Of a DNA stretch of 34,887 nucleotides, positions 991 to 34,663 are shown one piece after another (the first letter of the stretch is position 1; each line of letters opens with the position of its first letter). The stretch is taken from positions 1 to 34,887 of the IMG/VR virus record IMGVR_UViG_3300012940_001437. The stretch is one strand, 5' to 3'. The notes beneath the pieces are model-generated. The model searched no databases and had not been told where the DNA came from. It saw only the letters and a program-made list of their open reading frames with translations. The translations under genes were made by a program, and so were the position numbers. The DNA is from a virus (Duplodnaviria > Caudoviricetes).

Positions 991-1010
991 GATTGGTCAC
1001 TTGGACAATT
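991..1010. promoter_or_regulatory. 20-bp palindromic motif copy 1 (GATTGGTCACTTGGACAATT)
   Basis: Intergenic; matches AATTGTCCAYRTGGACAATT with a degenerate left arm. Confidence 0.7.
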
Positions 1011-1038
1011 CTAACTCGTCATGGGGCCAATTCTCGCG

Positions 1039-2274
1039 TCAAAGGCTAATCCCCACACCAATGCTGAACCTAGATGCCGAAGTCGCCATGAGATCGAACG
1101 ACCAGTCGGGATCGGCAAACAGTCTCGCCGCTTCAAGGTCCGAAAGATCGCGGTCGAAGATCATGAGATCGCGCACGTAAGCATTGAAGTCTTGACTGGT
1201 GTGCAGCCCAATTGATAGCTCGGGTGCAAGAGAGGCAAGTGGCCCACTAGCGGCAGAGGCTGTTTTTACCCCATTGAGGAACGCCGCGACGTTTGTTCCA
1301 TTCCAACGGAAAATGACGGTATTCGTTTGGTCACGAACGAAGGTGGTTGCTGGACTGAGTGTCAATTTGCCCGAGTTATTGTCCCGCATCACGTATTGCA
1401 TGCGATCCGATCCAGTTGCGCGGGTAATCGCTACGAAGCTGTTCGGGCCTCCGTATTGACCAGCGAATACGAGATAACCCGTATTGGCGTTGCCGGCCCA
1501 TGAAGGCACTAAGAACCGGGCGGCGATCGTGCCTTTGTCTGGAAATATGCGCCCAGTTGGCAACGTGACGAGGCGAGCGCCGGATCGAGTGCTTGCACTC
1601 GCATGCGGGGTCGTCGCCCAGGAGTAGCCGACTCCCATCGATCCCGCCGCAAGCGAGGTCGAATAGGCTTTAGCTTCGATCTGCGCCCCGGTCACATCAA
1701 GCACATCGCCAGCAGCACTTCCGGCCACAAGGTAGACGAGCAAGGTGAGATTGTGCCCATCCCCCTCGCACGTGCCGCTTACGGTGATGAGTTGTGCGCC
1801 TCCGGTCAATGTTGTTGTGATATTGCTAGCGCGATTGGGAGTTGTCGCCCCACTCTCATAGATTTGGACGCCGACCTTTTTGCCAATCGTCTGTCCGTTC
1901 GCGCGCACAAGTAATTGACCGGAGATCGGCCCTCCGGCAACGCTCCCCGCATTCCATACCGCGCATTGATGCCCGCTGTTATTGACATCGGACCATGTGA
2001 ATCGAGCCGCGGTTGGAATGATGCCCGCCGTGGGGTGCTGCATCCCAGCGTTAGTTAGCCATGTCCGAATAACATTCGTTCCCGCCGCAAAGCTGCCCCC
2101 TTCAACAGCTAGCGGGTTTGGTGCCTGATTGACGGTCGGCTCTTCCGGAAGATAGCCCTCACCGCTCGGTCCGAAGTGCACAGGTCCCGAACTTGGAAGG
2201 GGGAATACCCCAGCACGATCCCGAGCAATGAGGTCATCGACCAGGGCTGCATGCAATAGGGTTGGGTTGCCCAT
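1039..2274 (-). CDS. Head-spike fibre / carbohydrate-binding protein with C-terminal LamG/ConA-like domain
   Basis: GYLPEEPTVN and GAQIEAKAYSTS resemble the GLLIE..TN and QLE.G..ATSY motifs of RcGTA Rcc01080-like fibres; LamG-like C-terminus (FLNGV...LSIG...DLMIFDRDLSDLE). Confidence 0.7.
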   Translation of the reverse strand: MGNPTLLHAALVDDLIARDRAGVFPLPSSGPVHFGPSGEGYLPEEPTVNQAPNPLAVEGGSFAAGTNVIRTWLTNAGMQHPTAGIIPTAARFTWSDVNNSGHQCAVWNAGSVAGGPISGQLLVRANGQTIGKKVGVQIYESGATTPNRASNITTTLTGGAQLITVSGTCEGDGHNLTLLVYLVAGSAAGDVLDVTGAQIEAKAYSTSLAAGSMGVGYSWATTPHASASTRSGARLVTLPTGRIFPDKGTIAARFLVPSWAGNANTGYLVFAGQYGGPNSFVAITRATGSDRMQYVMRDNNSGKLTLSPATTFVRDQTNTVIFRWNGTNVAAFLNGVKTASAASGPLASLAPELSIGLHTSQDFNAYVRDLMIFDRDLSDLEAARLFADPDWSFDLMATSASRFSIGVGISL

Positions 2275-2277
2275 CGT

Positions 2278-2622
2278 CTAGCTCACCGGCTCCTCTTCGG
2301 GATTGGAAGCCGGATCGACCGGATCGGTCGAGATTCCGGCGTAAGCGTTCCACGCTCCTGAAATCGCGGTCTCGATCTCGGTATCTGTCACGTCCGCGGG
2401 ATTGGTCTTTTCCACTTGAGCCATCACGGCCTCGGCAAAGCGCGGCGCGTAGGTATCGGGGTAGTTGAGAACCATGCGCGACAGATTCGCCCGGTTGGCG
2501 TGGTTCTCGGTGTTGCTCGCCTCGGCGGAGATCTGGATAGCCGCCGAGATCGCTAGGAATTTCACGCGGCGCTGGAGTGTCACGTCTTGCGCAGCGAGTG
2601 CGCGCTCGTCAACCGTTGCCAT
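2278..2622 (-). CDS. Hypothetical phage virion-associated protein
   Basis: 114 aa ORF tightly packed between spike base and fibre genes. Confidence 0.7.
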   Translation of the reverse strand: MATVDERALAAQDVTLQRRVKFLAISAAIQISAEASNTENHANRANLSRMVLNYPDTYAPRFAEAVMAQVEKTNPADVTDTEIETAISGAWNAYAGISTDPVDPASNPEEEPVS

Positions 2623-2643
2623 GTGGTTATTGCCATCCCTGGG

Positions 2644-2904
2644 TTAGTTCAAGCCGATAATGCCGGTGGCCGTAGTTCCGGTGGCCCAAACACGTTTCGC
2701 GCGAATTGGATGCGCTACCCCGCCGGCTAGACCGGCGAATGTCACCGGATTCGTGTCGCCGACGAGCGTTACCCGCACGTCTCCGCCAGCGCCGACATAG
2801 AGACCGCGTGTCGGTGTCTCAAGGTCGTTTGTGTCGTTCGGCGAGATCGCTACGGCTTGGCTAGCCGGGCTCATCACGCTCCCGGCATCGTCATAGAGCG
2901 TCAA
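2644..2904 (-). CDS. Head spike base protein (RcGTA Rcc01079-like)
   Basis: 86 aa with SPA..AVAISPND..DL...TRGLYVG.GGDVRV...HPIRAKRVWATGTTATGIIGL, the characteristic pattern of this family. Confidence 0.8.
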   Translation of the reverse strand: MTLYDDAGSVMSPASQAVAISPNDTNDLETPTRGLYVGAGGDVRVTLVGDTNPVTFAGLAGGVAHPIRAKRVWATGTTATGIIGLN

Positions 2905-2922
2905 TGGCTTCCCCTTTCCGAG

Positions 2923-3975
2923 TTACCCCTCTAGGTACTCAATTGCAGTCCGGAGACTCGCGAACCCAACCATTTGCCGGCGCCACGGGTTGAACACCAC
3001 TACCGGGGTTCCGATGTGTGACTGGAATCCGAACTCCGCTGCATGCCCGTCCTTGACCTTGTAGCTTCCTGTCCGAACGAAAACCCGCTCGGCGCCGAGC
3101 ATTGGCGCGGTCTCGATGCTCGGTTCGTGCTGGTGCTCGACCACAACCACATCCGGCAGCTTGCCGGCACCGTTCACTGTTCCGAATCGCAGTGCCTGGC
3201 GAGCCGCATGTGTAGGGTTGTATCGCGAGCTCATCGGCGGACGGTGCTTGCGGTAGATCACGTATTCTTGCTGGCCGATCGTGAGATCAATGAATCCACC
3301 TTCTCCGGTATAGATCGCAGGCAGCCCGTGGAGAGCGGCAAGCGTTCCATCGATCCCGGCAGCGCGACGCGTCCAGGCGTTGTGGTTGCCATCGCCTACG
3401 GCAATAAGACTCTTGCTCTCAAGCAGTTCGAGCACGACATGCCGGAATAGCGACCATTGCACGATCGGCGGCGTTGCACCCTCGTCACGTGCGGCATGAG
3501 CGAGCTTGGAGAGCACGTAGTTATCAACGGCATCGCCACCAAGCACAACCTTGAGATGCGAGCATGAGGTAATCAGGGCGAGGTCTCGCCGGATAGCTTT
3601 GTGATCGGTCCCCATGCCGCCGATGTGGAGATCGGCGACGAACGCGATACCGATTGGTCGATCAGTTTCGATCCTAACCGGCAGCTCCGTAACGATCCGA
3701 TCTCGTTCAGCGGTAACCGCTTCCTGATGCTCAATGACCGCATCCCATAGCCGTTCCGGCTCGGAATCCGCCTTGATCTCCGGCAGCGTCATCACCGGTT
3801 CGGCGATCTCTTTGCGCCGACGCCGCGGTCGCCCGCCGGTAGCGCGGTAGTGGTACCGCTGCCACCGGTAGGCGTCGAACTCAAACCGCCCCGCATACTT
3901 CGCGTCGAACTCCTTCCATGAAAGTTCGGCGGCATCTTTTCGTGCTTCCTCTGTCCATGCGGGGGAGACAGTCAT
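2923..3975 (-). CDS. Calcineurin-like metallophosphoesterase
   Basis: Motifs DLH, GGDAVD, GNH, H, EHQH in the correct order. Confidence 0.8.
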   Translation of the reverse strand: MTVSPAWTEEARKDAAELSWKEFDAKYAGRFEFDAYRWQRYHYRATGGRPRRRRKEIAEPVMTLPEIKADSEPERLWDAVIEHQEAVTAERDRIVTELPVRIETDRPIGIAFVADLHIGGMGTDHKAIRRDLALITSCSHLKVVLGGDAVDNYVLSKLAHAARDEGATPPIVQWSLFRHVVLELLESKSLIAVGDGNHNAWTRRAAGIDGTLAALHGLPAIYTGEGGFIDLTIGQQEYVIYRKHRPPMSSRYNPTHAARQALRFGTVNGAGKLPDVVVVEHQHEPSIETAPMLGAERVFVRTGSYKVKDGHAAEFGFQSHIGTPVVVFNPWRRQMVGFASLRTAIEYLEG

Positions 3976-5408
3976 TACGCGGCAACCTCGCTCTCAAGCG
4001 GTCGGAACGATTCGTTATGGTTTGGGCGCCAGAGCGTGAAGCTCTCGAATCGGTAGTACTCGCGGCCGTCTGCGAAGAGCCACACGTCAACGATCCGGGT
4101 GTAGCCGAATACAGCCCCGTACTTGAGCCACGACTGAGAGACCGGGCCCTTTTCGTTGAATTCGTAGACCTTGCCGCCTTCCTGATAGCGACCAAAAAGC
4201 CATCCTGCGATGCCGGCATCCATGCCCGATGGATACCCCGAAACGGTCGGCACAGACGTTCCTCCTTTAGCGATGATCTTCCCGACGTTTTCGACAAAAG
4301 TTGGCCAGTACCCCTCACTCATCATGAGATCGGGGCAGTGGTGACGATCGGTGCTCCCCGAGTTGAAGTCCCAATGCCGCTTGACGCGATCTACGCCCAT
4401 CCCGAGCGCGCGCATGACTCCCCCCGCTAATGCCTCAGCATTGTGGCGAGCGGTAGCCTTATCACTTTCAGGGTTGATGCAGAGTTCGCACGAGATGCCG
4501 GACATATTGCCCTGACCGTCGCCGTCCGCGGCTTGCCACGTAACTTCATCGATCGGAATCTTCTGGTAGATCACACCCGAATCGACGGTGAAGTGGTAGG
4601 AGAGCTTTTGCGAAACCCCGTATTGATTGGGTGCGCCCTGATCCAGGTACCGGCTGTGCATTGCCGCTCCGGCTCCAGGATCAGGATTTCCGGTCTCATG
4701 CTGCACCCAATACCCCGGCGTTTGCCGCTTAATTCCCGGTCGCTGGTTGGTCTGCTCAGTGGGGATGAGATCGACAATGAGCGGAACCGGTAGTTCGATT
4801 GGAGTCGTCAGCCCGGCGACTCGATATAGCGCCATCGTTCCTCCTTTGGCGTTGGCGTCCGGTAAATTTGGCCATATGGACAATCCGCGGTCACAAATAG
4901 CCGCGGTCCCTCGTGGATTGGTCCACCACCTCCCTTGCAGGTCACTAAGCACGCGGGCAATGCCGGCGTAGCCCTTCTCAATTGCATCGTCGTATCGAGG
5001 ATCGAGCGAGATGTACGGTTCGAGCCGATGGCCCTTTGGGATCAAGCCGCGGACGTAGAGGTACATGTGCACGACGTATGCGCGCGCAGCCTCGGTGCCG
5101 TTTCTGTACGGCTTGATCTCAAGCTCGCCATCAGTAATGCCGATGCCGGCCGGATTGAGCCATTCCTCCCAGGCATCGGATAGCCACCCGCCGCCGCGTT
5201 TTTCGTCTCCGGTTTCGACGGCGGAATGAGCGCCGAGAATCGCGAAATCGAAACCAATGGTCGGATCGTTGCAAAGCGATTCGAGCTCCGCAGAAAACAA
5301 GCGAACATCCGTCATGCGCTTCGCACCGATACTTGCCGCGTAGGTATTTAGTTGCGCCGCAGTACCGCGGCTTTTGCCCGCGATCGGGTCACTTGGTCTG
5401 ATCGGCAT
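3975..5408 (-). CDS. Multidomain endolysin: glucosaminidase-like domain + N-acetylmuramoyl-L-alanine amidase (Amidase_2) + C-terminal domain
   Basis: AHSAVETG...NPAGIG in the N-domain; QHETGN, SYHFTVD, ISCELC, RHWD, HHCP zinc-amidase motifs. Confidence 0.85.
   Translation of the reverse strand: MPIRPSDPIAGKSRGTAAQLNTYAASIGAKRMTDVRLFSAELESLCNDPTIGFDFAILGAHSAVETGDEKRGGGWLSDAWEEWLNPAGIGITDGELEIKPYRNGTEAARAYVVHMYLYVRGLIPKGHRLEPYISLDPRYDDAIEKGYAGIARVLSDLQGRWWTNPRGTAAICDRGLSIWPNLPDANAKGGTMALYRVAGLTTPIELPVPLIVDLIPTEQTNQRPGIKRQTPGYWVQHETGNPDPGAGAAMHSRYLDQGAPNQYGVSQKLSYHFTVDSGVIYQKIPIDEVTWQAADGDGQGNMSGISCELCINPESDKATARHNAEALAGGVMRALGMGVDRVKRHWDFNSGSTDRHHCPDLMMSEGYWPTFVENVGKIIAKGGTSVPTVSGYPSGMDAGIAGWLFGRYQEGGKVYEFNEKGPVSQSWLKYGAVFGYTRIVDVWLFADGREYYRFESFTLWRPNHNESFRPLESEVAA
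4866..4885. promoter_or_regulatory. 20-bp palindromic motif copy 2 (ATTTGGCCATATGGACAATC)
   Basis: Inside the endolysin, 18 nt upstream of the internal RBS at 4840-4847. Confidence 0.7.
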
Positions 5409-5736
5409 GTTCTGTCACCTTCGTCACGGCATCGACGGCCGCGCCAACCTTGATCTCTCCAGCAAGCACGCGGATAAGTAGGGACCGGGTTTCAGCGAGC
5501 TCTTGCCGCATTTGCAACCGCTCTTCCCGGCTCTCGGACTCCAATCGATCGTGACGGGACTTGAGGTCTTCATACTTCGCGTTCGTTGCGGAGATTTCCG
5601 CTTTCGCGCTCTCCTGGACCGCGGATAGCTCCCGCGGGCTCACTATCCATCCCTTGTAGTGGGCGTAGATTGCAAGCAGGGGAAAGCCAATCGTGTTGAG
5701 TAGCGGGAGCCAATCGGCGGGGTTATTCACGCTCAT
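5389..5736 (-). CDS. Putative holin (N-terminal TM + coiled coil)
   Basis: LLNTIGFPLLAIYA hydrophobic segment; RBS AAAGGAGGTGA; directly upstream of the endolysin. Confidence 0.6.
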   Translation of the reverse strand: MSVNNPADWLPLLNTIGFPLLAIYAHYKGWIVSPRELSAVQESAKAEISATNAKYEDLKSRHDRLESESREERLQMRQELAETRSLLIRVLAGEIKVGAAVDAVTKVTEHADQTK

Positions 5737-5746
5737 TCACCTCCTT

Positions 5747-6079
5747 TCACTGCTGCTCGATTGCCGGCAACGGCACGCCGTCCAGCATCAGATCGCGAAT
5801 GACTTCAATCGCCCGCTTTGTCGCATCGGGGTCGGCCTCAAGATCGAGCGATTGCAATGCGCCGAGCATCTCTGCGCGCTGTCGCTCGGCGCTCGTTGGG
5901 GTCGGCACATAGGAGGCGAGGTCGGCGGCCGGGCTGCGATTGGCGCTCACGGTAACCCCGTGAATGTCAATCGCAGCCCAATCGACGGCATAACCGATGC
6001 TGGAGAGCCATTCATGGATGCGGCCCGCGTCATCGGATTCGGTCATTGCTTCCGGCTTCGGCAGGATGTAAATCGGCAT
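5747..6079 (-). CDS. Hypothetical protein (possible tail-fibre accessory)
   Basis: 110 aa, TAATG-coupled to the upstream tail gene. Confidence 0.7.
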   Translation of the reverse strand: MPIYILPKPEAMTESDDAGRIHEWLSSIGYAVDWAAIDIHGVTVSANRSPAADLASYVPTPTSAERQRAEMLGALQSLDLEADPDATKRAIEVIRDLMLDGVPLPAIEQQ

Positions 6080-6975
6080 TAGGCTGTCCTCTGCGCAATG
6101 GCAATCACAAACGGATTGCGCGAGCTCGTGGTGCCTGTGGCACTCGACTTGAACTGAATTTCGATCGTGATCGTTCGCCCCCCGGCAACGCTCGCGCGGG
6201 TGTGATCGTCCAGAGTTGTGGTCCAGGCTGACGAGCTCATAACAAGCGTGCGCGCGGTGCCGGCGTTGCCGTCGATAACGGTTTGCAGGTTTGACGAACC
6301 GCCTCCGGAGTGTTGGAGCATCGCGCCGCCGAGCGCGTATACAGTCCAGGTACCCGCGGGGAGTGCGAGATTCAGGGTTTGCGCAGTCGCGAATGTCGTT
6401 GTGCTAGTCGTGGATGCAGTGTCCGCCGCGCTCTGCGCGAGTACGCCTACGACCGGCGTATTCAGACTCGCAGCCGTTACCGCCCCATCAAACCGTGCCG
6501 CTCCGGTCGTGCTGTCCAGGTTCCATTTCGCACCCGTCGCCGGTCCGCTCCCGTCATCCGCGAATCCGGAAAGATGCACTCCGTTGACCGCTGCGACATT
6601 CGACGGTGCCAGCGAATCGACGCGAAATACGAGCGTGCCATCGTTCTTGCCAACCGCGAATGCATGGTCATCGTCGCGTTTGATCGTGAGCGGAGCAGAA
6701 ATCGTGTAGACGCCCGGCGCAGATCGCACGAGCTGACCGAGTGCAACCGGCTTCCCTCCGAGATCGAGCATGACCACTTCGGCGCCGGAAGCGAGGTCGA
6801 AGCCGGCGAGTCGCGAGTACGCCTCGCCATCAGGGCTACCAGCACCGAGTCGGGTAATCGTGATCGGTCCAGATCCTCCCGAACTCACCGTTGCTCGCCA
6901 CGGCATGAGCCGTCCGATGATGCCCATGAGATCGTCACGGAGGTCCTTGTAAAAATCGCGCGCCTTGCTCGCCAT
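6079..6975 (-). CDS. Minor tail / tail-fibre protein
   Basis: Start reassigned to ATG 6975 (TGATG overlap with the upstream stop); Gly/Ser/Thr/Ala-rich, beta-rich; last gene of the tail module. Confidence 0.65.
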   Translation of the reverse strand: MASKARDFYKDLRDDLMGIIGRLMPWRATVSSGGSGPITITRLGAGSPDGEAYSRLAGFDLASGAEVVMLDLGGKPVALGQLVRSAPGVYTISAPLTIKRDDDHAFAVGKNDGTLVFRVDSLAPSNVAAVNGVHLSGFADDGSGPATGAKWNLDSTTGAARFDGAVTAASLNTPVVGVLAQSAADTASTTSTTTFATAQTLNLALPAGTWTVYALGGAMLQHSGGGSSNLQTVIDGNAGTARTLVMSSSAWTTTLDDHTRASVAGGRTITIEIQFKSSATGTTSSRNPFVIAIAQRTA

Positions 6976-8066
6976 CAGGCCACCGTCCTGTATGGAACGA
7001 GTTTGTTGAGGTCGTGGGTCATCGGACCGTCGCTCGGCGTAAACCCAACGCTCCAACCGGTGCACCACCACACGCCCTCTGCGACGATCCCCGCAGCGTT
7101 GCTAATCGCGAGTTCGTAGACCTCGTGCGGGTTCCTGCTCGGGTCAGGCGTGGTGGTGAGTTTGAGGCGCGTATAGACGGATGCGGCTTCCTGAAGCGTT
7201 CGGGCTACGAGCTTATCTGCCTCGGATTGTGATGCGATGTTCTGATCTTTGATCGTGCGGCCGATCGTGATTCCGAGGGTCACGGTCGAGACCGGGCTCG
7301 CCGGGTTATCGTTGACGCCGAAGGCAATCAGCGGGTCTTTCGCCGGATCGTCTCGAATCACCGTCACCTGATTGACGATTCGACCGGGGTCCGGGTCGAT
7401 CTCCACCGTACGGATCACGCGCACTTTCCCGAGAGCCGGGGTTGCATAGCTAACTGCCGGCTGCACACTCTCCATGTCGCGCCAGGGCATTGACGCGAGG
7501 TATCCATCGCGAAGCATGTAAAGGGTGTAGAACCCGGTCCCCCCGAGAATGTCGTTGACGAGATCGAGCTTGCTGGTATCCGGTGGCCAAGTCGTGTCGC
7601 TGTCAAAGGTGAGCGGCGAATCGGCGATCACGTGCCGCGTAAGCCCCATCGCGTTGAGCACAATCCGAACGGCTTCGATTCGGTTCGTTCCGGCCGTCAC
7701 CGTGTACGGCGCCGTAAGCGTGTCAACCGAAAGAAGCCATGTCAGATCGCGCCCATCGAGATCGCCACGGGTGAGTTGAGTCGAGGCGCTTTGCTTTGGC
7801 GGTGCTACGGCATAGAGACCAACCTGCTCGGTGATCACCTCGCCGTCGGGATAGACGAGGGTGAGGACCGGCGCCAGGAAATCTCGGTAAGGGTCGATCA
7901 CCTCAGGATCGCTGACCTTGACCGCGAAACTCATCTTGATCGCCCGGTCCTCGTCATAGGTCACCCGCCCGCTGCTCACGTAGCGAGTGATGTCCTCCCG
8001 AAACTCATTGAGCTTGGTGGCACGCCAGAGCGTTGGTTTGATTTGTACGTTTCCGACGCGAGGCAT
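6975..8066 (-). CDS. Baseplate hub / tail-tip (Tal-like) protein
   Basis: 363 aa downstream of tape measure; GRDL, VNQVTV and LTTTPDP pattern typical of siphophage hub proteins; RBS GAGGAGG. Confidence 0.65.
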   Translation of the reverse strand: MPRVGNVQIKPTLWRATKLNEFREDITRYVSSGRVTYDEDRAIKMSFAVKVSDPEVIDPYRDFLAPVLTLVYPDGEVITEQVGLYAVAPPKQSASTQLTRGDLDGRDLTWLLSVDTLTAPYTVTAGTNRIEAVRIVLNAMGLTRHVIADSPLTFDSDTTWPPDTSKLDLVNDILGGTGFYTLYMLRDGYLASMPWRDMESVQPAVSYATPALGKVRVIRTVEIDPDPGRIVNQVTVIRDDPAKDPLIAFGVNDNPASPVSTVTLGITIGRTIKDQNIASQSEADKLVARTLQEAASVYTRLKLTTTPDPSRNPHEVYELAISNAAGIVAEGVWWCTGWSVGFTPSDGPMTHDLNKLVPYRTVA

Positions 8067-8085
8067 TCGCCACTGACCTCCTCAC

Positions 8086-8105
8086 AATTGTCCACATGGA
8101 CAATT
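8086..8105. promoter_or_regulatory. 20-bp palindromic motif copy 3 (AATTGTCCACATGGACAATT)
   Basis: Intergenic, 19 nt upstream of ATG 8066. Confidence 0.9.
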
Positions 8106-8116
8106 TTACTTCGTAC

Positions 8117-10678: not shown

Positions 10679-10697
10679 TGGTGATATCGCCTCACTT

Positions 10698-10717
10698 TAC
10701 TGGCTATATGGACAACT
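10698..10717. promoter_or_regulatory. 20-bp palindromic motif copy 4 (TACTGGCTATATGGACAACT)
   Basis: Intergenic, 19 nt upstream of ATG 10678; degenerate left arm. Confidence 0.7.
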
Positions 10718-10718
10718 T

Positions 10719-13214: not shown

Positions 13215-13234
13215 GGTTGTCCATGTGGACAATT
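13215..13234. promoter_or_regulatory. 20-bp palindromic motif copy 5 (GGTTGTCCATGTGGACAATT)
   Basis: Intergenic before tape measure; nested in a 9-bp GC inverted repeat (13207-13245). Confidence 0.9.
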
Positions 13235-13247: not shown

Positions 13248-13502
13248 CTAGATGCCTCGTTTCTTTCGTCCGCGGGATCGAGCGGATTTACGCTCCGCTT
13301 TCTTGTTGAGGTGCTCGCGAGCGTCGTTCTCGGCTTTCATCGCGATCAACACTGCGTTGAGCCAGAAGCTCGGAGCTGCCGCCCATTCCCACGGTTTGAC
13401 GGCGCCCTCCATGTACTTCGATGCCTGTATGTGGTCCCACCACCACTCGGGCTTATCCGAAGCACCGTTAGTGATTAGCGACCGGAAGAGCGCGCTCGCC
13501 GT
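13248..13502 (-). CDS. -1 frameshift extension of the tail assembly chaperone (gpT equivalent)
   Basis: Open -1 frame after slippery C CCA AAA (13502-13508): TASALFRSLITNGASDKPEWWWDH...RKKRGI*; not in the ORF track. Confidence 0.8.
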   Translation of the reverse strand, partial: TASALFRSLITNGASDKPEWWWDHIQASKYMEGAVKPWEWAAAPSFWLNAVLIAMKAENDAREHLNKKAERKSARSRGRKKRGI

Positions 13503-13849
13503 TTTGGGTCCGGATTCGCGTCCTCGGCGATCGAGTTCCAGATATGCGCCATGTAGGGACCCGGGAAGTAGGCGAGGTACTCGGGTTCAATCGGCACCTT
13601 CTCGCCTTCGGGCACGAAGTACTCACCCTCGCCGAACGGCCCCTCCAGCTCCCAATCGCACATGACGCCGGCAACCATGCGGGCAAATGAGAGTTCGTCG
13701 CCGCTCTCAATCGCCTCGTTGATCCTCCGCAACGTAGCCGGCGTCATCTTGTCAACTTCGTACGTGATTTCGAGCCGCTTCCCGTTCGCGAACTTGACAT
13801 CGAACGTACGTTTGCCCTCGACAAGATCGGCAAAGCTCATGCCTGCCAT
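13475..13849 (-). CDS. Tail assembly chaperone (gpG equivalent)
   Basis: Between major tail and tape measure; likely start ATG 13849 after GGAGG; slippery heptamer near the 3' end. Confidence 0.8.
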   Translation of the reverse strand: MAGMSFADLVEGKRTFDVKFANGKRLEITYEVDKMTPATLRRINEAIESGDELSFARMVAGVMCDWELEGPFGEGEYFVPEGEKVPIEPEYLAYFPGPYMAHIWNSIAEDANPDPKRRARSSGR

Positions 13850-13933: not shown

Positions 13934-13953
13934 AAATGTCCACATGGACAATT
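13934..13953. promoter_or_regulatory. 20-bp palindromic motif copy 6 (AAATGTCCACATGGACAATT)
   Basis: Abuts the stop codon of the major tail gene (13954). Confidence 0.9.
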
Positions 13954-14979: not shown

Positions 14980-14999
14980 TATTGTCCATATGGACAAAT
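14980..14999. promoter_or_regulatory. 20-bp palindromic motif copy 7 (TATTGTCCATATGGACAAAT)
   Basis: Intergenic, 18 nt upstream of ATG 14961. Confidence 0.9.
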
Positions 15000-16505: not shown

Positions 16506-16525
16506 AGTTGTCCATATGGACAATT
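16506..16525. promoter_or_regulatory. 20-bp palindromic motif copy 8 (AGTTGTCCATATGGACAATT)
   Basis: Overlaps the capsid TAA stop. Confidence 0.9.
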
Positions 16526-17496: not shown

Positions 17497-17516
17497 ATTT
17501 GTCCATGTGGACAATT
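17497..17516. promoter_or_regulatory. 20-bp palindromic motif copy 9 (ATTTGTCCATGTGGACAATT)
   Basis: Intergenic, 19 nt upstream of the capsid ATG. Confidence 0.9.
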
Positions 17517-20451: not shown

Positions 20452-20471
20452 AATTGTCTACTTGGACAAAA
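20452..20471. promoter_or_regulatory. 20-bp palindromic motif copy 10 (AATTGTCTACTTGGACAAAA)
   Basis: Contains the kinase TAG stop; 16 nt upstream of the MuF GTG. Confidence 0.8.
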
Positions 20472-21084: not shown

Positions 21085-21104
21085 TGTTGTCCACATGGAC
21101 AATT
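21085..21104. promoter_or_regulatory. 20-bp palindromic motif copy 11 (TGTTGTCCACATGGACAATT)
   Basis: Intergenic, 12 nt upstream of ATG 21072. Confidence 0.9.
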
Positions 21105-22579: not shown

Positions 22580-22905
22580 TCGCGATCACCACCAATTTCG
22601 AGTTCGAGAATGCCCGGATTGTCGTCAATGAGATTCAAAAGACCGATATGGAGCTTGCGGGTTTGCTTCTCGGACAGTCGGATGTCGTATTCAAAATCGA
22701 CTGCATGGATGAGCTCGTGGAAGAGCGTTGCGCGCCGGCGCTGGGGATTGAGCCCACTCACGATCTCGATCTCGTCATTGCCGCCGCTGAACACCCCATA
22801 GCATTCGTCGCCGTCAACCACGATCGAGTTAGCCTCGTACACGTCAACCGATGCCGGGCCAACCTTGACCGATCCGACGTACTTCCGTGTCTCTTGCTCA
22901 CTCAT
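22576..22905 (-). CDS. ImmA/IrrE-like HExxH metallopeptidase
   Basis: YG.F....EIEI...L.PQRRRATLFHELIHA. Confidence 0.7.
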   Translation of the reverse strand: MSEQETRKYVGSVKVGPASVDVYEANSIVVDGDECYGVFSGGNDEIEIVSGLNPQRRRATLFHELIHAVDFEYDIRLSEKQTRKLHIGLLNLIDDNPGILELEIGGDRE

Positions 22906-23291
22906 ACTGCCTCCTGTGGGCCGCTACGTGGCCCTGAGAGCGTCGATAGCGCCGATCGAGGGTGATTGGTCGTGAGACCATGAAAATTGTCTCTATGGAC
23001 AATTCTAGGGCATGTTTCGGCAATCGCGGCTTGCAGTTCTCTTCGGCGAATCTCCACCGCTACACCGCAGTCCGGAGCCCGGACCGGAGTGGAACGCCCC
23101 AAGGAACAAGCCGCTGCACCGAACGTCGCAATTGCCGATACGATGTCACCCGACAGTGATCTGGCTAGGTGCTTGACTACCGCGGAGACGATCGGCTCGT
23201 ATGCTTCCGGATAGCCTGGCCAGTCGATGCCGCTTGCATCGCTCATTGCCGCCTCGTATGCGGTCTCAATCAGTTCGCGACTGGTCGTCAC
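22902..23291 (-). CDS. Hypothetical protein
   Basis: 4-nt overlaps with both neighbours. Confidence 0.55.
   Translation of the reverse strand: MTTSRELIETAYEAAMSDASGIDWPGYPEAYEPIVSAVVKHLARSLSGDIVSAIATFGAAACSLGRSTPVRAPDCGVAVEIRRRELQAAIAETCPRIVHRDNFHGLTTNHPRSALSTLSGPRSGPQEAV
22985..23004. promoter_or_regulatory. 20-bp palindromic motif copy 12 (AATTGTCTCTATGGACAATT)
   Basis: In the 3' part of ORF 22902..23291, about 80 nt upstream of the peptidase gene. Confidence 0.8.
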
Positions 23292-26403: not shown

Positions 26404-26422
26404 TGTCCACCAAACATATCTG

Positions 26423-26442
26423 TATTGGTCATATGGACAATC
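26423..26442. promoter_or_regulatory. 20-bp palindromic motif copy 13 (TATTGGTCATATGGACAATC)
   Basis: Contains the upstream TGA stop; 19 nt upstream of the terS ATG. Confidence 0.8.
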
Positions 26443-26931: not shown

Positions 26932-26934
26932 TGG

Positions 26935-28388: not shown

Positions 28389-28570
28389 GACAGAGCGCTC
28401 TCAATCTTGATTTCCAGGTCCGGATCAACGAATGGGATGAGGAAGGGAATGCCTTCTACGCGGATATAGGCATAAGTACCACTCCGCTTGACCACTTCAC
28501 CCTCCCATCCGTAAAAGAAACTCATCGGGTTGCGCACGCGAACATGGCGACCCGGCACGAATCGATACAT
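28385..28570 (-). CDS. KOW/SH3-like small protein
   Basis: Start reassigned to ATG 28570 after AGGAGG; PGRHVRV....FYGWEGEVV. Confidence 0.65.
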   Translation of the reverse strand: MYRFVPGRHVRVRNPMSFFYGWEGEVVKRSGTYAYIRVEGIPFLIPFVDPDLEIKIESALS

Positions 28571-28578
28571 ACCGCCTC

Positions 28579-28653
28579 CTACTCGCGGACGCGCGAGTTG
28601 CCTATCTGCCACGCGAAGATCAGGAGCCCGAGCACAACGAGTACGTGCTCCAT
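28579..28653 (-). CDS. 24-aa hydrophobic micropeptide (MEHVLVVLGLLIFAWQIGNSRVRE)
   Basis: My translation; TGATG overlap upstream; stop abuts the next RBS. Confidence 0.5.
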   Translation of the reverse strand: MEHVLVVLGLLIFAWQIGNSRVRE

Positions 28654-28787
28654 CAGGGGTTGCTTTCCCGTCGGCGGATCGCCCAGCCCAGGAGCCAGAA
28701 CACCGCGACGAAAAAGGCGCCGAGCATGATGGGTGTCAAGGCAATAACAACTGCCCAGGTCGCAAGGAAGTCGATTGCGTTGCTCAT
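28653..28787 (-). CDS. 44-aa membrane peptide
   Basis: My translation MSNAIDFLATWAVVIALTPIMLGAFFVAVFWLLGWAIRRRESNP; ATGA overlap upstream; positive-inside RRR. Confidence 0.65.
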   Translation of the reverse strand: MSNAIDFLATWAVVIALTPIMLGAFFVAVFWLLGWAIRRRESNP

Positions 28788-29239
28788 AGCTCAGCTCTCA
28801 CCTCGATCGTGATCTCGGTGACGCGCAGACTTCGGCGACGATCCGATTCGAGTTCGATCTCGACATCGGCGGCGACGATACTCCGTAGGCGATCGGCAAT
28901 CTCCACAAAGCTCAGCCGGTGCACATCGTTCATAAGGACAACTGAGTGGGAGATGTCAGCGAGGAATCCGGTTGCCGTGATGACTTCAAACGGAGCCACA
29001 CAGTCACATGGCTCGCGACCGGGAATTAGGTAGGAGAAGTCGCCGGGGAAGCCGTCGGATTCCGGAATCCATTCGCCCATTCCGGAAACGTCACAAAGCA
29101 CTCCCTCGGCACACCAGCACGTCTCTCCGCTCGCGGGGTCAGTGTTTCTGAGCGTGTAGAACCCCTGCTTGTACGTGCCGGATTCCAACGCCTCGATCCA
29201 GCGCGTAATCAGCCCATCGGTATCGATCGTTCCTCGCAT
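28784..29239 (-). CDS. Hypothetical phage protein
   Basis: WIEALESG.YKQG...CAEGVLC...MND...SF.EIAD pattern. Confidence 0.7.
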   Translation of the reverse strand: MRGTIDTDGLITRWIEALESGTYKQGFYTLRNTDPASGETCWCAEGVLCDVSGMGEWIPESDGFPGDFSYLIPGREPCDCVAPFEVITATGFLADISHSVVLMNDVHRLSFVEIADRLRSIVAADVEIELESDRRRSLRVTEITIEVRAEL

Positions 29240-29646
29240 TGCGTTTGCCTTTCATTGCTCAGGATTCCGAAGAGAAACTGTTCGGTAGTGGTGAGCGCCG
29301 ATCCGTCTCGGACCATCTCGCCGGTAAAGCGCAGAACAGACCAGCCGAGCATCGTCGCGAGGTTGTACTTGCGGCAGTCCTCGGCATAGCCGGAGCCGCG
29401 TGTGTGCCGTCCCTGACCAAACGTCCCGCCCTCGATCTCGACCAAGAGCCGGGCATCGGGCCAGGCGAAGTCGGATCGATAGCGCCGCGGATGAGCGAAT
29501 GGGTATTCGCGAATTGGCGGCGGCAATCCGGCAAAGGTCACGTGTTGGAGATAGGCAAGCTCAAGGCACTGACAGACCTTGAAGCCGCAATCAGGACATG
29601 GCTCTTTCGGCTTCGACCGCCGCGCTACCCTCGGAGCCCTACTCAT
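29209..29646 (-). CDS. PD-(D/E)XK endonuclease (DUF559/Vsr-like)
   Basis: REY.F...RRYRSDFAWP..RLLVEIEGG...H...DCRKYN....GWSVLRFT. Confidence 0.8.
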   Translation of the reverse strand: MSRAPRVARRSKPKEPCPDCGFKVCQCLELAYLQHVTFAGLPPPIREYPFAHPRRYRSDFAWPDARLLVEIEGGTFGQGRHTRGSGYAEDCRKYNLATMLGWSVLRFTGEMVRDGSALTTTEQFLFGILSNERQTQCEERSIPMG

Positions 29647-30152
29647 GCAACTGCCCCGATCGCGACCGGGAAATTCAGTTGCGGGGCAAATTCGCCGAAG
29701 TGCTCGCGCGCGGCTTCGTCATACGCGGCCGCTGCCGGCTCGGGATCATCGAAGAGTCCGAGGTAAATGAATCGCCCTTCGATCCTGATACCCGCCTGCC
29801 ACTTGCCGGCTCGCTTGTGCCATGTGACTCCGTGATAGCCGCTTGTGTTCCTCCGAGAAATCCGTGTGCGATTGCGTCCGTTCTCTACCGAGGTTGCCCT
29901 GCGGAGATTCGATCGCCGGCAATCGAGCGTATCGCCGTTGATGTGATCAACCTTGTGGTCTGGCGGATCACCGAGGATCACTCGATGCAGCAAGATCGTG
30001 CGGCGCCTGCCATCGATCCGCGCGGTTCGGCGTGCGTACACATGGCCGTCGTCGGCAATAAGCGCACACCACGCTAGCTCGCCGAATCGTTCGTAGTCCT
30101 CGTCATCGACCAACGCCGTATAGCCCTTGGTGAGCGGTATGCGCCGCGTCAT
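29643..30152 (-). CDS. HNH homing endonuclease with AP2 domain
   Basis: LHRVI...VDHINGDTLDCRRSNLR...N; NTSGYHGV.W...KWQA.I...YLGLF...AYD. Confidence 0.9.
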   Translation of the reverse strand: MTRRIPLTKGYTALVDDEDYERFGELAWCALIADDGHVYARRTARIDGRRRTILLHRVILGDPPDHKVDHINGDTLDCRRSNLRRATSVENGRNRTRISRRNTSGYHGVTWHKRAGKWQAGIRIEGRFIYLGLFDDPEPAAAAYDEAAREHFGEFAPQLNFPVAIGAVA

Positions 30153-30171
30153 TGTCTTTCAATGCCTCCAT

Positions 30172-30191
30172 TTTAGTCCATATGGACAATT
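30172..30191. promoter_or_regulatory. 20-bp palindromic motif copy 14 (TTTAGTCCATATGGACAATT)
   Basis: Overlaps the primase-helicase TAA; 19 nt upstream of the HNH ATG. Confidence 0.85.
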
Positions 30192-31936
30192 TATTGGCGA
30201 CGGAGAGTACCGGGGGTCCATGCATCTCCCCCGAGCCAGGGCGAAAAGCACCCGTTTGCGGGGTTGTAGTCAACGCGGTAGACGCCGAGCTCTCCGCACT
30301 CGCGAAACCGCACTTTCTGAATGTGGACCTCAATCGGCATCGACTCGTCAGCCTTGTTACGGGCAACGGTGATGCAGTTGTCGGCCTTGTTGTACCAGTG
30401 GGCGCTTCCGGAAATGTCGTAAGGCGTCGGAACGGGGTACTCGCCACCCTCCTTCGCCATCTTTGCCGGGTGTGCGATGACGATGACGGCTACCCCGTAG
30501 TGGCGGGCGAACGTGCGGAGTTTCGTGAGCGCTTGCGAGATGTATTCGGTCTCGCTTAGCCCGCCTGGCCGCTGGTGATCGAGCTCATTCCACGGGTCGA
30601 TCACGAGTAGCTTGATGCCGGAGCGGTAAACCTCTTTGCGGGCGAGCTCCAGGATGTTATCGAGCGATGGCTCTTCGGGAGCTAGGAAGCGAAACCGTTG
30701 GTGGATCGCCTCGATACTGCGTTCAAGCTCGCTCTCGGTAATGAGCTCGGAGTCTTCTCGCCACTTGCGGACCGCACGACGACTCAGCTTTTCGACCAAT
30801 TTCGCAACGTGCCGCTCGACCGGATGATTCTCCGGCGAGTAAAACGCGGTTGTCCATCCCTCGTATTTGCCGAGGTTTACCGCGAGCGCATCGACCCATT
30901 CGCTCTTTCCCGATCCGGGCATGCCGGTCACGATGATGAGTTGTCCGAGCTTGATCCGCCATCGCAGATCGTGAAATCCGGTCTCCGTTCCGGGGTCCAG
31001 CTGGCCGCGGTAGAGCGCCATCACCTCACCGTACACGTCCCGCGGGGTGATGATTCCCTCGATTGGCCACGGCGAAGCATCCTCGATCAGTGCGGCGAGG
31101 TATTCCGCTCCCGTCTGCACCAATGCCTCATTGGCATCCTTGATCCCATCGGGCCAATCGACACGCCAGCACCGCTCTTTCCCGAGCCGGCGGGCGAGCT
31201 CGGCGGCGAGCTTGACGCCAGGTTCATCGGCGTCGGTCGCGAGAACGATTCGCTTCGCATCGCCGAGCGCCTTTTCCGCAGCCGGATCAGCGAGGAAATC
31301 GAACTTGCTCGCATAGTTACGGGCATCAGGCGCCGGCGCTCCGTCAGGAACGCTCACACATGCCCGAATGCCGGCAGCTTCGAGCGCGAGCTTGTCCATT
31401 TCGCCTTCAACGATCACGATCGTTTCGGCGCCGGCGATGTCATCGAGGCCGTAGAGAATCCGCTCGGTGTCCTTGCTCGTGCGGAAGTCCTTGGAGCCTC
31501 TCGCTCGGTACTTCACGCTTACGAGCTCGCCGTTCCGGAATGATGGGTAGGCGATTGCGTCCCGCTTGCCGTCTAGCTGTGGGAAAAAGACATCGCGAAC
31601 CACCACGATCTGATTGCGGCGAACAACGTCCTCGGGGATGCCGCGGCTCGCAAAGAACGCTAGCGCTTCATCGGTGAGCTCGCCCTCCAGCGGATCTGGC
31701 CGCGTGTGCACCTTGCGCCGCGGTGGCGCGTTCGGAGCTTTCAGGCGCAAGCCGTCGCTCCAGCCGCAGTGATGGCAATACCAGGTTCCCTCTTCGACGT
31801 TTACCGAGAGGTCTTTTTCGTGCCGGTGTTCTGGTCGCCGATCGGGACTGCACCGCGGGCAGGTTGCGCGAACTTCACCGCGTGCGCTCGGTGCAATCTC
31901 AATGCCGAAATCGGCAAAGGTTGGTGCAGGGCTCAA
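30191..31936 (-). CDS. T7 gp4/Twinkle-like primase-helicase
   Basis: CPRC..CHHC Zn finger; IVEGEMD and DAD TOPRIM; KDANE; GMPGSGKS, LLVIDP, IAHP, DISGS SF4 helicase. Confidence 0.92.
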   Translation of the reverse strand: MSPAPTFADFGIEIAPSARGEVRATCPRCSPDRRPEHRHEKDLSVNVEEGTWYCHHCGWSDGLRLKAPNAPPRRKVHTRPDPLEGELTDEALAFFASRGIPEDVVRRNQIVVVRDVFFPQLDGKRDAIAYPSFRNGELVSVKYRARGSKDFRTSKDTERILYGLDDIAGAETIVIVEGEMDKLALEAAGIRACVSVPDGAPAPDARNYASKFDFLADPAAEKALGDAKRIVLATDADEPGVKLAAELARRLGKERCWRVDWPDGIKDANEALVQTGAEYLAALIEDASPWPIEGIITPRDVYGEVMALYRGQLDPGTETGFHDLRWRIKLGQLIIVTGMPGSGKSEWVDALAVNLGKYEGWTTAFYSPENHPVERHVAKLVEKLSRRAVRKWREDSELITESELERSIEAIHQRFRFLAPEEPSLDNILELARKEVYRSGIKLLVIDPWNELDHQRPGGLSETEYISQALTKLRTFARHYGVAVIVIAHPAKMAKEGGEYPVPTPYDISGSAHWYNKADNCITVARNKADESMPIEVHIQKVRFRECGELGVYRVDYNPANGCFSPWLGGDAWTPGTLRRQ

Positions 31937-32778
31937 AGCGCCAACCTCCCTTCACCGATCAGCACGCGGCCGTTAGCTCGTATCGGCGCCGGGTCGGGAG
32001 CGTTGCGCCACCACTGGTCAGCGATCCACTTTGCCGGCGCCGGAATAAAGCGCCCGCCATCTTCGCGCCATTGATCGCTCTTTTTCCACGCCTCCAGCGC
32101 GAGCATGATTTGCTCTCTGAGCACGGCATCGGGGCTCAACTTGAACCACTCGGTACTCGCGCCTACTTCCCCGATCGGTCGTGGATAGGAATCAAAGAAC
32201 TCGCGAAACCATCCAGCGAGCTCTTGTCGCCGATCATCGTTGAGGCTGTCCCGCGTGCGCTTAGAGAGTGCGTTAGCACTCTCTTTGGTCTGGTTAGGTC
32301 TGGTCTGGTCTGGTGCAACCGTAACGCGACGTTTCGTCACGTCGTTACGCAACGTCTCCGTAACGTTCGCGTTGTGCGTTACGGGATCGTCGCGTAACGA
32401 TTTCTGCTTTTCTCGGTACCGCTTTTGCCGCTCGGCGGCTTTCTGTTTCGCGGTTTCGTTCTTGTCCCGGAGTGCGATATAGCGGCCGGCGTATACCCAC
32501 CAATCGTGGATCACGATCTGGTCACCGTCCCGATCAAGAAAGCCGGAATCGATGAGCGCCTCAATGAGCATTTCCGGATCGCCGTCCCACTGCGAACCGT
32601 CCGCGATCTCGATCGCATCGAACCGGCTAATGTCGCCGTCATCGGTGTAGTTGAGCGCCCACCACCACACAAGATGCAATTGCCCGATTGCAGCGGCCTT
32701 GGAGATGCCGAGCTTTCTCGCGAGCCTTCGCACCTTTGGATGGTTGGCGAGGGTGTCGTGCGATTCAATCCATGCCAT
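31933..32778 (-). CDS. Phage replication initiator (replisome-organiser type)
   Basis: MAWI..H......PK...L N-terminal wHTH, IHDW, AAERQKRYREK, VT-rich linker, C-terminal F..YPR...FIPAPAKW. Confidence 0.8.
   Translation of the reverse strand: MAWIESHDTLANHPKVRRLARKLGISKAAAIGQLHLVWWWALNYTDDGDISRFDAIEIADGSQWDGDPEMLIEALIDSGFLDRDGDQIVIHDWWVYAGRYIALRDKNETAKQKAAERQKRYREKQKSLRDDPVTHNANVTETLRNDVTKRRVTVAPDQTRPNQTKESANALSKRTRDSLNDDRRQELAGWFREFFDSYPRPIGEVGASTEWFKLSPDAVLREQIMLALEAWKKSDQWREDGGRFIPAPAKWIADQWWRNAPDPAPIRANGRVLIGEGRLAL
32287..32399. repeat. Iteron-like cluster within the initiator gene (putative phage ori)
   Basis: CGTWACG at 32320, 32343, 32359, 32377, 32393 plus variants; adjacent tandem GGTCT pentamers. 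Confidence 0.6.
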
Positions 32779-32783
32779 CGGTG

Positions 32784-33122
32784 TTATCCGTTTTTCGCGA
32801 GCAGATGGGCGCGAATCGAGTCCCAGGTGTCAGGCATGCTGTACCGCTGATCCCAAAGCAACATCACGTCTGACAATCCGCTGCGTTCGCGATCGGTCAG
32901 TGTGCGATGCAGCACGTTTTGAGCGTCGTCCGCTGCCTCGACGCCATCCAACGGATAGCTCTCCGGTCTCTTTGCGCGCCGGTTGCCGAGATTCCATGAG
33001 ACAAAATTGCAGGCGCCGATGATGCAGAAAGTGGAGATGCCTATCACGATGTCATCGCCCTCAATTGGCGCCGCGAGGACGATATCGGCGACCTTATCGC
33101 CGTAGATCGTTCGGAGATTCAT
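32784..33122 (-). CDS. Hypothetical protein, paralog of 33119..33484
   Basis: Shared MNLR.I.GD..AD.VL..PI and CIIGA. Confidence 0.75.
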   Translation of the reverse strand: MNLRTIYGDKVADIVLAAPIEGDDIVIGISTFCIIGACNFVSWNLGNRRAKRPESYPLDGVEAADDAQNVLHRTLTDRERSGLSDVMLLWDQRYSMPDTWDSIRAHLLAKNG

Positions 33123-33484
33123 AGGGCTTCCTCCGAAATTGGCCGCGCCAAGAGAGTGGATCGAGTTGCTTCCATGCGGTCGTTGATCGCCATTCGATAG
33201 TCGTCATCCCATGCTTCGATGGCGTCTCCGATCGTGTGCATTTCTTGGGTCGTGAGCGGTCGGTTGATCAGGTCTTGGGTCTGCAATATGGCCACATCGC
33301 GCGACGGCCAGAATTCGACAGCATGCACGTTGAGGTCTTGCTCTATCGCTGTCTCGGCCATAAGGGCACCGATAATGCAACAGCGCCTTGAAGCCTTACC
33401 GCCGAACAGAATCGCTCCATGACTGATCGGCATTTCGAGCACGGCATCTGCGGCGGCATCGCCGAAAATCGATCGCAGGTTCAT
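33119..33484 (-). CDS. Hypothetical protein, paralog of 32784..33122
   Basis: Shared MNLR.I.GD..AD.VL..PI and CIIGA. Confidence 0.75.
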   Translation of the reverse strand: MNLRSIFGDAAADAVLEMPISHGAILFGGKASRRCCIIGALMAETAIEQDLNVHAVEFWPSRDVAILQTQDLINRPLTTQEMHTIGDAIEAWDDDYRMAINDRMEATRSTLLARPISEEAL

Positions 33485-34284
33485 TGCTGGTTCCCCTTGG
33501 TGAGTTCGTCGGATCGCTTGGTTACGGCTTGAGCGAGGAAGTCGGTAAAGGCGTCGGCTTCATAGGCTGCATTGGCGATGGCGTTGAGGACGTTCTGATC
33601 AGGCGCGGAGCGAACGAGCAATGCCCATTTGCCCGGCGAATTCGCCTCTCGGATTAGCGAATCCCACGCCGATTCAAATCCCGAACTCCACGCCTTGATC
33701 GCCGCGTCGATGCGGTTTTGCCATTCGGTTCGCGGGTCTGATGGCAGATTTTGAGAGATACCCCGCGACACGCCGCCCGATGCCCCTGTGGCTCGCTGTG
33801 GCGGTCGCTGAGCGCCATTTGCCACCTGATTCGGCTGATTGTTCATGTGGACATTTCCGGATCGTTGTGGGGCCTGCTGGCGTGCTGAGCGCTCGATAGG
33901 TGAGTCAACGATGCGCGGACCGTTATTGCCGTCAAGCTCGTCTCCGATGAATTGTGTTCCGAAGCCGAGCGCGGCAAGCGCTCGACCAAGCGCCTTCGTT
34001 TCCGCCTTCTCAACGAAGTCGCGAAAGTCGTTGTATTGCTCGGAGCCCCATCCGGTTGCTGATCCGCCGTTCGGAACCGAAACGCGAGCGCGAAAGACGG
34101 CGCTCTGGCCGTCGTATGTCGTCATCTCCGTTTCAATGTGCGCGTCAGGGTGACGATCGCGGAGCCACTTGAGGCGGAATTTCACTTGAAGATAATCGGC
34201 ACCCTTGAGGTCAACGATGTCGCCGGACGGATCGTAAGGGGCAGGGGTTTGGACTTGATCGGTGTCGGTCATTTCAGCACTCAC
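33481..34284 (-). CDS. Rad52/Sak-like single-strand annealing protein
   Basis: LKGADYLQV..RL.W...ATGWG...EKAETKALGRALAALGFG followed by a disordered linker. Confidence 0.7.
   Translation of the reverse strand: MSAEMTDTDQVQTPAPYDPSGDIVDLKGADYLQVKFRLKWLRDRHPDAHIETEMTTYDGQSAVFRARVSVPNGGSATGWGSEQYNDFRDFVEKAETKALGRALAALGFGTQFIGDELDGNNGPRIVDSPIERSARQQAPQRSGNVHMNNQPNQVANGAQRPPQRATGASGGVSRGISQNLPSDPRTEWQNRIDAAIKAWSSGFESAWDSLIREANSPGKWALLVRSAPDQNVLNAIANAAYEADAFTDFLAQAVTKRSDELTKGNQQ
33837..33856. promoter_or_regulatory. 20-bp palindromic motif copy 15 (GATTGTTCATGTGGACATTT)
   Basis: Intragenic, in the disordered linker of the annealing protein; 3 mismatches. Confidence 0.6.
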
Positions 34285-34631
34285 TATGCGGCTCGATCGA
34301 GCTCGATGTCTGCGATGAGATAGCCGTCAGACGTTGACGCCTCAAAGTGGTAGGGGGAGAAGTCGCTTCCGAAGAGTTCGCGAATGAACGCCTTTGCGAC
34401 GAAGAGTCCACCGCCGTTCGCTGCCGATACCGTGTAGGTGTGGCTCGCTCGATCTTTCGCCGGCCGAATGCCGATGCGGCGGTTTGTCACGTCGAGGGCA
34501 AGCTCGACATGCCGCGGGCAATTGAGTGCCTCGAATGCCGCGTGATTCAGTGCGATGTGGCCAGATCGGTAAACCCGAATCTTGGGGAACGGCGACGAAT
34601 TACCGCGACCGCTCCGATAAACCTCGAACAT
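34284..34631 (-). CDS. Hypothetical protein, possibly AbrB-like swapped-hairpin fold
   Basis: IRVYRSGHIALN.AAFEAL....HVEL.LD....RIGIRP; RBS GGAGG. Confidence 0.6.
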   Translation of the reverse strand: MFEVYRSGRGNSSPFPKIRVYRSGHIALNHAAFEALNCPRHVELALDVTNRRIGIRPAKDRASHTYTVSAANGGGLFVAKAFIRELFGSDFSPYHFEASTSDGYLIADIELDRAA

Positions 34632-34643
34632 ACAGACCTCCGG

Positions 34644-34663
34644 AATTGTCTATGTGGACAATT
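34644..34663. promoter_or_regulatory. 20-bp palindromic motif copy 16 (AATTGTCTATGTGGACAATT)
   Basis: Intergenic, 12 nt upstream of ATG 34631. Confidence 0.88.

Follow-up and report, generated by a model that had tools for sequence, protein, structure and literature searches.

Sixteen polar quasi-palindromes, mostly at gene junctions, in a prophage of a likely Thermomicrobiales host

The locus and its sites

We have analysed a 34,887-nucleotide stretch of Caudoviricetes DNA, hereafter the window (positions 1 to 34,887 of the IMG/VR record IMGVR_UViG_3300012940_001437). All 48 curated genes lie on the minus strand, in the order early genes, replication initiator, primase-helicase, HNH nuclease, terminases, methyltransferase, SPP1-like portal, dNMP kinase, MuF, scaffold, capsid, tail and endolysin. 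Dispersed along these genes, mostly at their junctions, are 16 copies of a 20-bp dyad whose upstream half, in coding orientation, is conserved far better than its downstream half. We suggest that these sites may be operators of a repressor encoded by the phage itself.

An earlier note on this DNA had listed 16 copies by their start positions, and all of them are present, departing from the 20-mer consensus at 0-5 positions. Twelve have at most three mismatches, against 0.00 expected from 100 dinucleotide shuffles. Scored with a symmetric position weight matrix (PWM) built on the same 16 sites, they reach 22.0-35.5 bits (18.9-35.1 bits when each is left out in turn). Because the next-best site, at 28924, scores 10.4 bits and the ceiling of 30 mononucleotide shuffles is 14.5 bits, we regard the set as complete within the window. 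The 16 sites are thus real and far beyond chance. Each consists of two 9-bp arms around a centre that is fixed at 2 nt and variable in sequence (in coding orientation, TA in 7 of 16 sites and CA in only 4). Perfect 7+7 cores are found in 6 of 16 sites, and TTGTCCACA is present on one strand in five. Neighbouring sites stand 633 to 3,875 bp apart in a window of 59.7% G+C.

The sites favour gene boundaries, as had been claimed for 13 copies: 13 of 16 touch non-coding DNA, where 5.2% would be expected per site (p=1e-14). It is also true that most junctions free of translational coupling carry a site, since 13 of 18 gaps of at least 15 nt are occupied and none of the 29 tighter junctions is; these counts rest on gene starts of our own choosing, and a few of them, that of the scaffold gene for one, are uncertain. 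The distance from the end of the motif to the next start codon is 12-84 nt, usually with a Shine-Dalgarno (SD) sequence directly behind the motif, and among the 13 junction sites it is 19 nt for five and 18 nt for another. Two sites hold the upstream stop codon inside their downstream half. Three sites (4866, 22985 and 33837) lie within coding frames.

The sites had been described as 20-bp palindromes. The dyad stands and full symmetry does not: they are polar quasi-palindromes, a property absent from that description. In coding orientation, TGTCCA (positions 4-9, in the upstream half) is identical in 16 of 16 sites, and the 7-bp cores hold 1 mismatch upstream and 15 downstream. By core, the upstream half is the better one in nine sites and the downstream half in none (p=0.004); by 9-bp halves the figures are 13 and 1 (p=0.002), in a test that was devised post hoc, once the alignment had been seen, and has 10 informative sites. 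Coding overlap does not explain the polarity, because upstream cores contain 35 coding bases and downstream cores 27, and because the 11 sites whose downstream core is free of coding constraint still show it 5 to 0. Additionally, compensated changes number 0 among 35 deviating arm pairs, which argues for a DNA site rather than an RNA stem.

Read in the direction of transcription, and all on the minus strand, the sites begin at 34644-34663, in the gap between the first two early genes. The ATG of the second of these, 12 nt on, opens the gene of a 115-amino-acid (115-aa) protein (34284-34631, minus strand) of an unnamed family, with 166 homologues and, judged by eye, a possible DNA-binding fold. 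The site at 33837-33856 falls in a Q/N-rich linker within the 33481-34272 gene, whose product is likely a single-strand annealing protein, a call also made by eye. The following sites lie at 30172-30191, at the primase-helicase stop with the HNH endonuclease ATG 19 nt on; at 26423-26442, including the upstream stop codon and 19 nt ahead of the small terminase ATG; and at 22985-23004, within the unannotated open reading frame (ORF) 22902-23291. In the head genes, 21085-21104 lies past the portal stop and 12 nt ahead of the dNMP kinase ATG, 20452-20471 includes the dNMP kinase stop, with a MuF-like head gene 16 nt on, 17497-17516 occupies the gap between scaffold and major capsid (ATG 19 nt on), and 16506-16525 overlaps the major capsid stop and is followed by a GC-rich inverted repeat.

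Among the tail genes, the site at 14980-14999 precedes the tail tube ATG by 18 nt and that at 13934-13953 lies immediately past the tail tube stop. The site ahead of the tape measure gene, 13215-13234, is nested in a longer GC-rich inverted repeat (a 60-nt fold of -28 kcal/mol). The weakest site, 10698-10717, has three downstream-core mismatches and stands between the tape measure stop and the minor tail ATG, 19 nt on, and 8086-8105 is a consensus copy between two tail genes, again with the ATG 19 nt on. At 4866-4885 the site is inside the endolysin ORF, 30 nt ahead of an in-frame internal SD and ATG (Met192) that precede the amidase domain, and the last site, 991-1010, lies past a LamG-domain gene and ahead of the last small ORF (695-928).

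Some neighbouring genes have features of their own. The internal SD of the 477-aa endolysin ORF (window 4833-4885) is strong, and translation from Met192 would give a 286-aa, amidase-only product. In the tail assembly chaperone region (13248-13849), a 124-aa ORF is followed by a 54-aa frame and then by the tape measure gene, a layout in which programmed frameshifting is common. Two adjacent small early genes (32784-33484) may be tandem paralogues, given the nearly identical first residues of their products, MNLRTIYGD and MNLRSIFGD.

Prophage state, host and distribution of the motif

The window is an integrated prophage. IMG/VR classes the record as 'provirus', and contigs from three of four runs diverge after position 121 into other DNA, the empty-site form. 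Run X1, from which this DNA may come, contains both occupied and empty forms of the attachment site, and its read depth is 39 up to position 121 and 19 on the phage. Because of this divergence and depth step, we assign positions 1-121 to host DNA at the attachment junction; on the minus strand they form the 3' part of an S9 peptidase gene, with a product 78% identical over 40 aa to the S9 peptidase of Thermomicrobiales genome G153. The integration point is near residue 528 of about 621 of that peptidase, and within positions 1-147 the phage side supplies an in-frame GTG ahead of the severed 3' part. The most syntenic structural module that we found is in a Thermomicrobiales metagenome-assembled genome (G001). 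By sequence similarity, the host likely belongs to the Thermomicrobiales, the order that the host-fragment search covered.

The prophage continues past the window. The X1 record begins at window position 92 and extends 3,550 bp beyond 34887, and the contig behind loci L095 and L126 is 39,328 bp long, with the window at offset 2. This puts the whole prophage at about 38.3 kb, of which the upstream end, roughly 3.5 kb, is outside the window. In a related prophage (G017), the corresponding part holds an integrase and an XRE-type helix-turn-helix (HTH) gene just ahead of the early genes. Runs X2-X4 give no conservation signal, since the long pieces listed for them match the window exactly, and no RNA data set was listed as containing this DNA.

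As an array, the motif was found only here. The full 20-mer has no exact match in viral contigs; a 16-mer core is found at 47 loci and an 18-mer at 96 metagenome loci. Among 227 loci, at least three sites occur only in five from the prophage's own contig, and three others have two. The earlier note had wished to see a host repeat checked. A repeat shared by the likely host order can be set aside, as the motif does not rise above background across 192 genomes of that order (a set that includes the unpublished genomes G032, G126, G140, G175 and G176). In these 192 genomes the core at up to one mismatch occurs 91 times, against 11 times in the 35 kb studied here; the 91 matches are spread over 61 genomes, with at most 8 in each, and control counts are similar in size. 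The strongest host-order matches, in unpublished G175, were rejected: each is within or next to short tandem repeats, they are scattered over different small contigs, and they are likely coding. PWM scans gave best scores of 11.4 bits in 57 capsid-relative loci of at least 9 kb, 13.6 bits in related prophage stretches and 3.4 in the first 20 kb of phiC31.

Single copies elsewhere can adjoin regulator genes. A near-consensus copy at L123:5069-5088 lies between a divergent PucR-type regulator gene and genes for P5C dehydrogenase and proline dehydrogenase, and is a candidate operator of that regulator; another copy adjoins a TetR gene in L130. Such copies suggest only that the word suits dimeric regulators.

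Relatives of the phage offered further repeats. De novo searches gave no convincing array in L232 or L237. Structural relative G001 has a non-palindromic word, GGGTGTGGTGGG, 5-6 times on both strands of C17:60844-83916, often with a pyrimidine-rich tract next to it. A more distant Ornatilinea prophage (G002) has an 11-bp palindrome of its own, ATRCTSAGYAT, roughly once per 6 kb. The genome has 11 copies, 7 of which lie in 36 kb of prophage (G002:C34:153526-189629; L290-L292), mostly in coding sequence, by a pattern derived from the very copies counted; one copy is just downstream of an HTH repressor-like gene. Additionally, a homologue of the capsid protein of our prophage is present in 120 of 192 Thermomicrobiales genomes, mostly in single copy and at 35-58% identity (for example G153:C7:1082691-1083578), and may represent a domesticated capsid, a gene-transfer-agent or an encapsulin-like locus. 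Tallies of this homologue, and of the 115-aa homologues below, include unpublished G031 and G175.

Candidate readers of the sites

We favour, at a probability of roughly 0.55, the explanation that the sites are operators of the phage's own dimeric repressor, encoded in the missing ~3.5 kb and silencing the whole prophage by transcription block. From the missing end, such a repressor would occupy the dispersed sites along the prophage, and at each of them it would block transcription, leaving the whole prophage silent. As the genes share a single direction, RNA polymerase would meet the upstream half-site first; selection would keep this half perfect and the downstream half could drift, which is our proposed cause of the polarity. 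The explanation starts from what was observed (the number, position and polarity of the sites, the prophage state, the missing end and the absence of the motif, above background, from host-order genomes) and would add to it protein binding, the identity of the repressor and its roadblock action.

More tentatively, and with a good deal less conviction, we suggest that a symmetric dimeric repressor, of an undescribed family in a Chloroflexota phage, might act as a one-way roadblock for which only the first-met half-site must be perfect. Such a dyad would be a middle form between the symmetric conserved inverted repeats (CIRs) of phiC31 and the asymmetric L5 stoperators. If operators of the phage's own repressor are indeed what we see, genome-wide operator networks extend to Chloroflexota prophages, and the array becomes a natural test of how a dyad operator turns directional, with 16 graded sites and one perfect upstream half. 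It would also be further evidence that distributed silencing arose repeatedly with unrelated motifs, even within one capsid family.

Between a dimeric protein and mRNA elements, both of which had been proposed, the dyad, the lack of compensated pairs, the restriction to the prophage and the phiC31-like layout speak for the first, and the second is not supported. The earlier note was also right that no cognate repressor is visible in the window, and the record ends short of the end where one is expected. Because of this truncation, the simplest inference is that the repressor is likely encoded in the missing end.

Several results weigh against operators of a phage repressor. Among the 51 window ORFs, no HTH regulator or repressor family was identified with PHROGs or Pfam, and PF25746, the c-family repressor, is absent from the window; it matches in 0 of 192 Thermomicrobiales genomes, in a search whose control gave no match either. 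None of the relatives among the sequences and loci scanned carries this motif as an array, and a de novo search found no palindrome array in the closest structural relatives (G001, G017, L010 and L011), which counts against the array as a clade-wide trait. The polarity was tested post hoc, with 10 informative sites, and comes to 5 to 0 among the 11 unconstrained ones. Additionally, the available part of the account of Cluster O mycobacteriophages describes an array in phages without stable lysogens or an integrase (PMC4351075), so that an array of this kind can exist without a role in lysogeny.

Activator-binding or phage-specific promoter elements for lytic growth are an unlikely alternative that merits consideration, as TTGTCC, acting as a -35-like element, would explain the polarity. 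It agrees with TTGACA at 4 of 6 positions, the highly expressed capsid and tail tube genes have sites ahead of them, and the 19-nt (5 of 13) and 18-nt (one) spacings are near leaderless-promoter geometry. However, four of the five 19-nt gaps contain an SD, so the spacing fits a ribosome footprint, and distances to the start vary from 12 to 84 nt. We saw no conserved -10 element downstream of the sites, none of three sigma-70-type promoter-like hits in the window has a site as its -35 hexamer, and early and replication genes are covered as well. We are more doubtful that the reader is the 115-aa early protein (34284-34631), as a Cro-like or nucleoid-organising factor acting genome-wide. Its own start is 12 nt past a site, and its model is confident (pLDDT 92.6), with a beta-beta-alpha-beta-beta order, repeated twice, that may resemble AbrB-type DNA binders. 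Most open-gap genes have a site ahead of them, however, so this one is not special, and the protein has no match in Pfam, NCBIfam or the PDB and no named one in the Atlas. Homologues of it were found in 13 of 192 Thermomicrobiales genomes; the motif is absent from 11 such loci (best PWM score 9.7), and larger stretches from the 11 homologue-bearing genomes contain no array. A weak palindrome upstream of the homologue in G127 (PWM 3.7) is single, within chance, and was rejected.

We give little credence to binding by a host protein, whether PucR-type, TetR-type or DnaA, that would couple the prophage to host state. The word TTGTCCACA, present in five sites, resembles the DnaA-box consensus, but the centre is CA in only 4 of 16 sites and TA in 7. 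A look for host boxes weighs neither way: in none of five genomes does a TTNTNCACA box lie within some 1.5 kb of the dnaA C-terminal domain. The copies beside the PucR-type and TetR genes in L123 and L130 would suit a host regulator, but among the 21 single-hit loci inspected (of 91 outside this prophage) only one has a neighbouring PucR gene, the motif stays at control level in the likely host order, and the available parts of two reports (PMC13599513, PMC7652997) give no matching consensus for PucR. Hairpins acting in mRNA, for processing or translational control, seem improbable in view of the 0 compensated pairs among 35 and of the coding strand, where the non-Watson-Crick pairs are 31 mismatches and 3 G-U; for four sites the fold is no stronger than -0.9 kcal/mol. 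Perfect copies do reach -7 to -8 kcal/mol, with ribosome-binding sites just past their ends, and one site precedes the internal translation start in the endolysin. A variant of this idea is that the invariant half alone may be a linear RNA motif. Very improbable, finally, is that the repeats promote gene exchange, as recombination joints or relics, and take no part in regulation. Boundary repeats can mediate deletions, as the part of the Cluster O account available to us suggests (PMC4351075), but three of our sites are embedded in coding frames, their flanks share no homology, and recombination does not require dyad symmetry with a free centre.

Comparison with known systems

The closest counterpart in layout is phiC31, a temperate Streptomyces siphophage of ~40 kb. 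An unbiased palindrome search of its genome found exactly 16 copies, 15 of them outside coding regions, with one 58 nt before the repressor gene c and one inside c; we take these to be the CIRs bound by repressor c. Both phages thus have 16 junction palindromes, those of phiC31 lying at portal, capsid, tail, lysis and early junctions. Their sequences are unrelated (phiC31 core TACTCACGTGAGTA, CIR type CC-TAC...GTA-GG), no c homologue is present in the window, and, unlike the array described here, the phiC31 copies are near-perfectly symmetric and show no polarity (p=0.34-0.69).

Phages that share the capsid family of our prophage carry phiC31-type arrays and c homologues. Our search of capsid relatives flagged 12 of 57 loci; 10 of these, with CG-rich words, were put down to codon bias and not inspected. 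Palindromes at structural-gene junctions, often directly past stop codons, were found in flagged L381 and L393 and in unflagged L426 and L433, while L364, also unflagged and inspected, was negative. A CIR-like pattern built from these four loci matches 9, 13, 1 and 6 times in the records of L381, L393, L426 and L433 (controls 0), and 12 times in G198, which was left out of pattern building. Loci L381, L393, L433 and L411 lie in G194, G195, G197 and G198, respectively. A phiC31 repressor c homologue is found in three of the five records, and in all three a site lies 0.1-0.3 kb ahead of the part that matched. The form in G194, G195, G197 and G198 is CACC-TAC or TCC ... GTA or GGA-GGTG, at 6-13 per genome, and the central bases vary between phages, as immunity variants would.

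Published arrays, as far as the available parts of the reports cited here describe them, share other properties with ours. In L5 the repressor binds at dispersed sites, and the stoperators of Cluster A mycobacteriophages are asymmetric and oriented, with function lost on reversal (PMC9283540, PMC6550527); R4-like Streptomyces phages carry stoperators too (PMC10276819). Like our sites, those of Cluster A and R4-like phages are many, spread across a temperate phage, placed in short intergenic spaces and oriented with transcription. Stoperators are 13-14 bp, without a dyad and monomer-bound, in contrast to a 20-bp dyad here in which polarity lies only in the half that tolerates change. Cluster O mycobacteriophages have over 30 copies (34) of a 17-bp dyad with little orientation, a dispersed and partly intergenic inverted repeat (7+7) for which a dimeric regulator was proposed (PMC4351075). 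Unlike those here, Cluster O repeats have invariant arms and lie in coding regions in about a third of cases, in phages that are not obviously temperate.

The extended start-associated sequences (ESAS) of Cluster K mycobacteriophages are imperfect inverted repeats that directly precede ribosome-binding sites, and their left repeat is nearer to consensus than the right, which is published precedent for polarity (PMC3203893). ESAS differ in having 17-bp arms, a variable spacer and a conserved 13-bp start-associated sequence (SAS), against 9-bp arms and a fixed 2-nt centre here; we saw no conserved 13-bp, SD-containing SAS in the site flanks, where SD sequences are ordinary and variable. In the Bacillus prophage SPbeta, MrpR binds the dispersed SPBRE, a repeated intergenic element that, like ours, was found in silico, and was later shown to be the site of the master repressor (PMC10516654). 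Unlike our sites, SPBRE is 15 bp long, lies in promoter regions and is recognised by a protein of tyrosine-recombinase fold, and no MrpR-like gene of that fold was seen in the window.

These precedents show that to call the array an uncharacterised regulatory system, as had been done, was an overstatement, since phiC31 CIRs, Cluster O dyads (PMC4351075) and SPBRE with MrpR (PMC10516654) had already been described. We see no new class of system in the array: its kind is already known and its polar form appears to be new. What sets it apart is the one-sided conservation of a dyad, together with a likely Chloroflexota host. By sequence the sites do not belong to the phiC31 CIR family and by symmetry they are not stoperators; by analogy, the array most likely works like the CIR network of phiC31.

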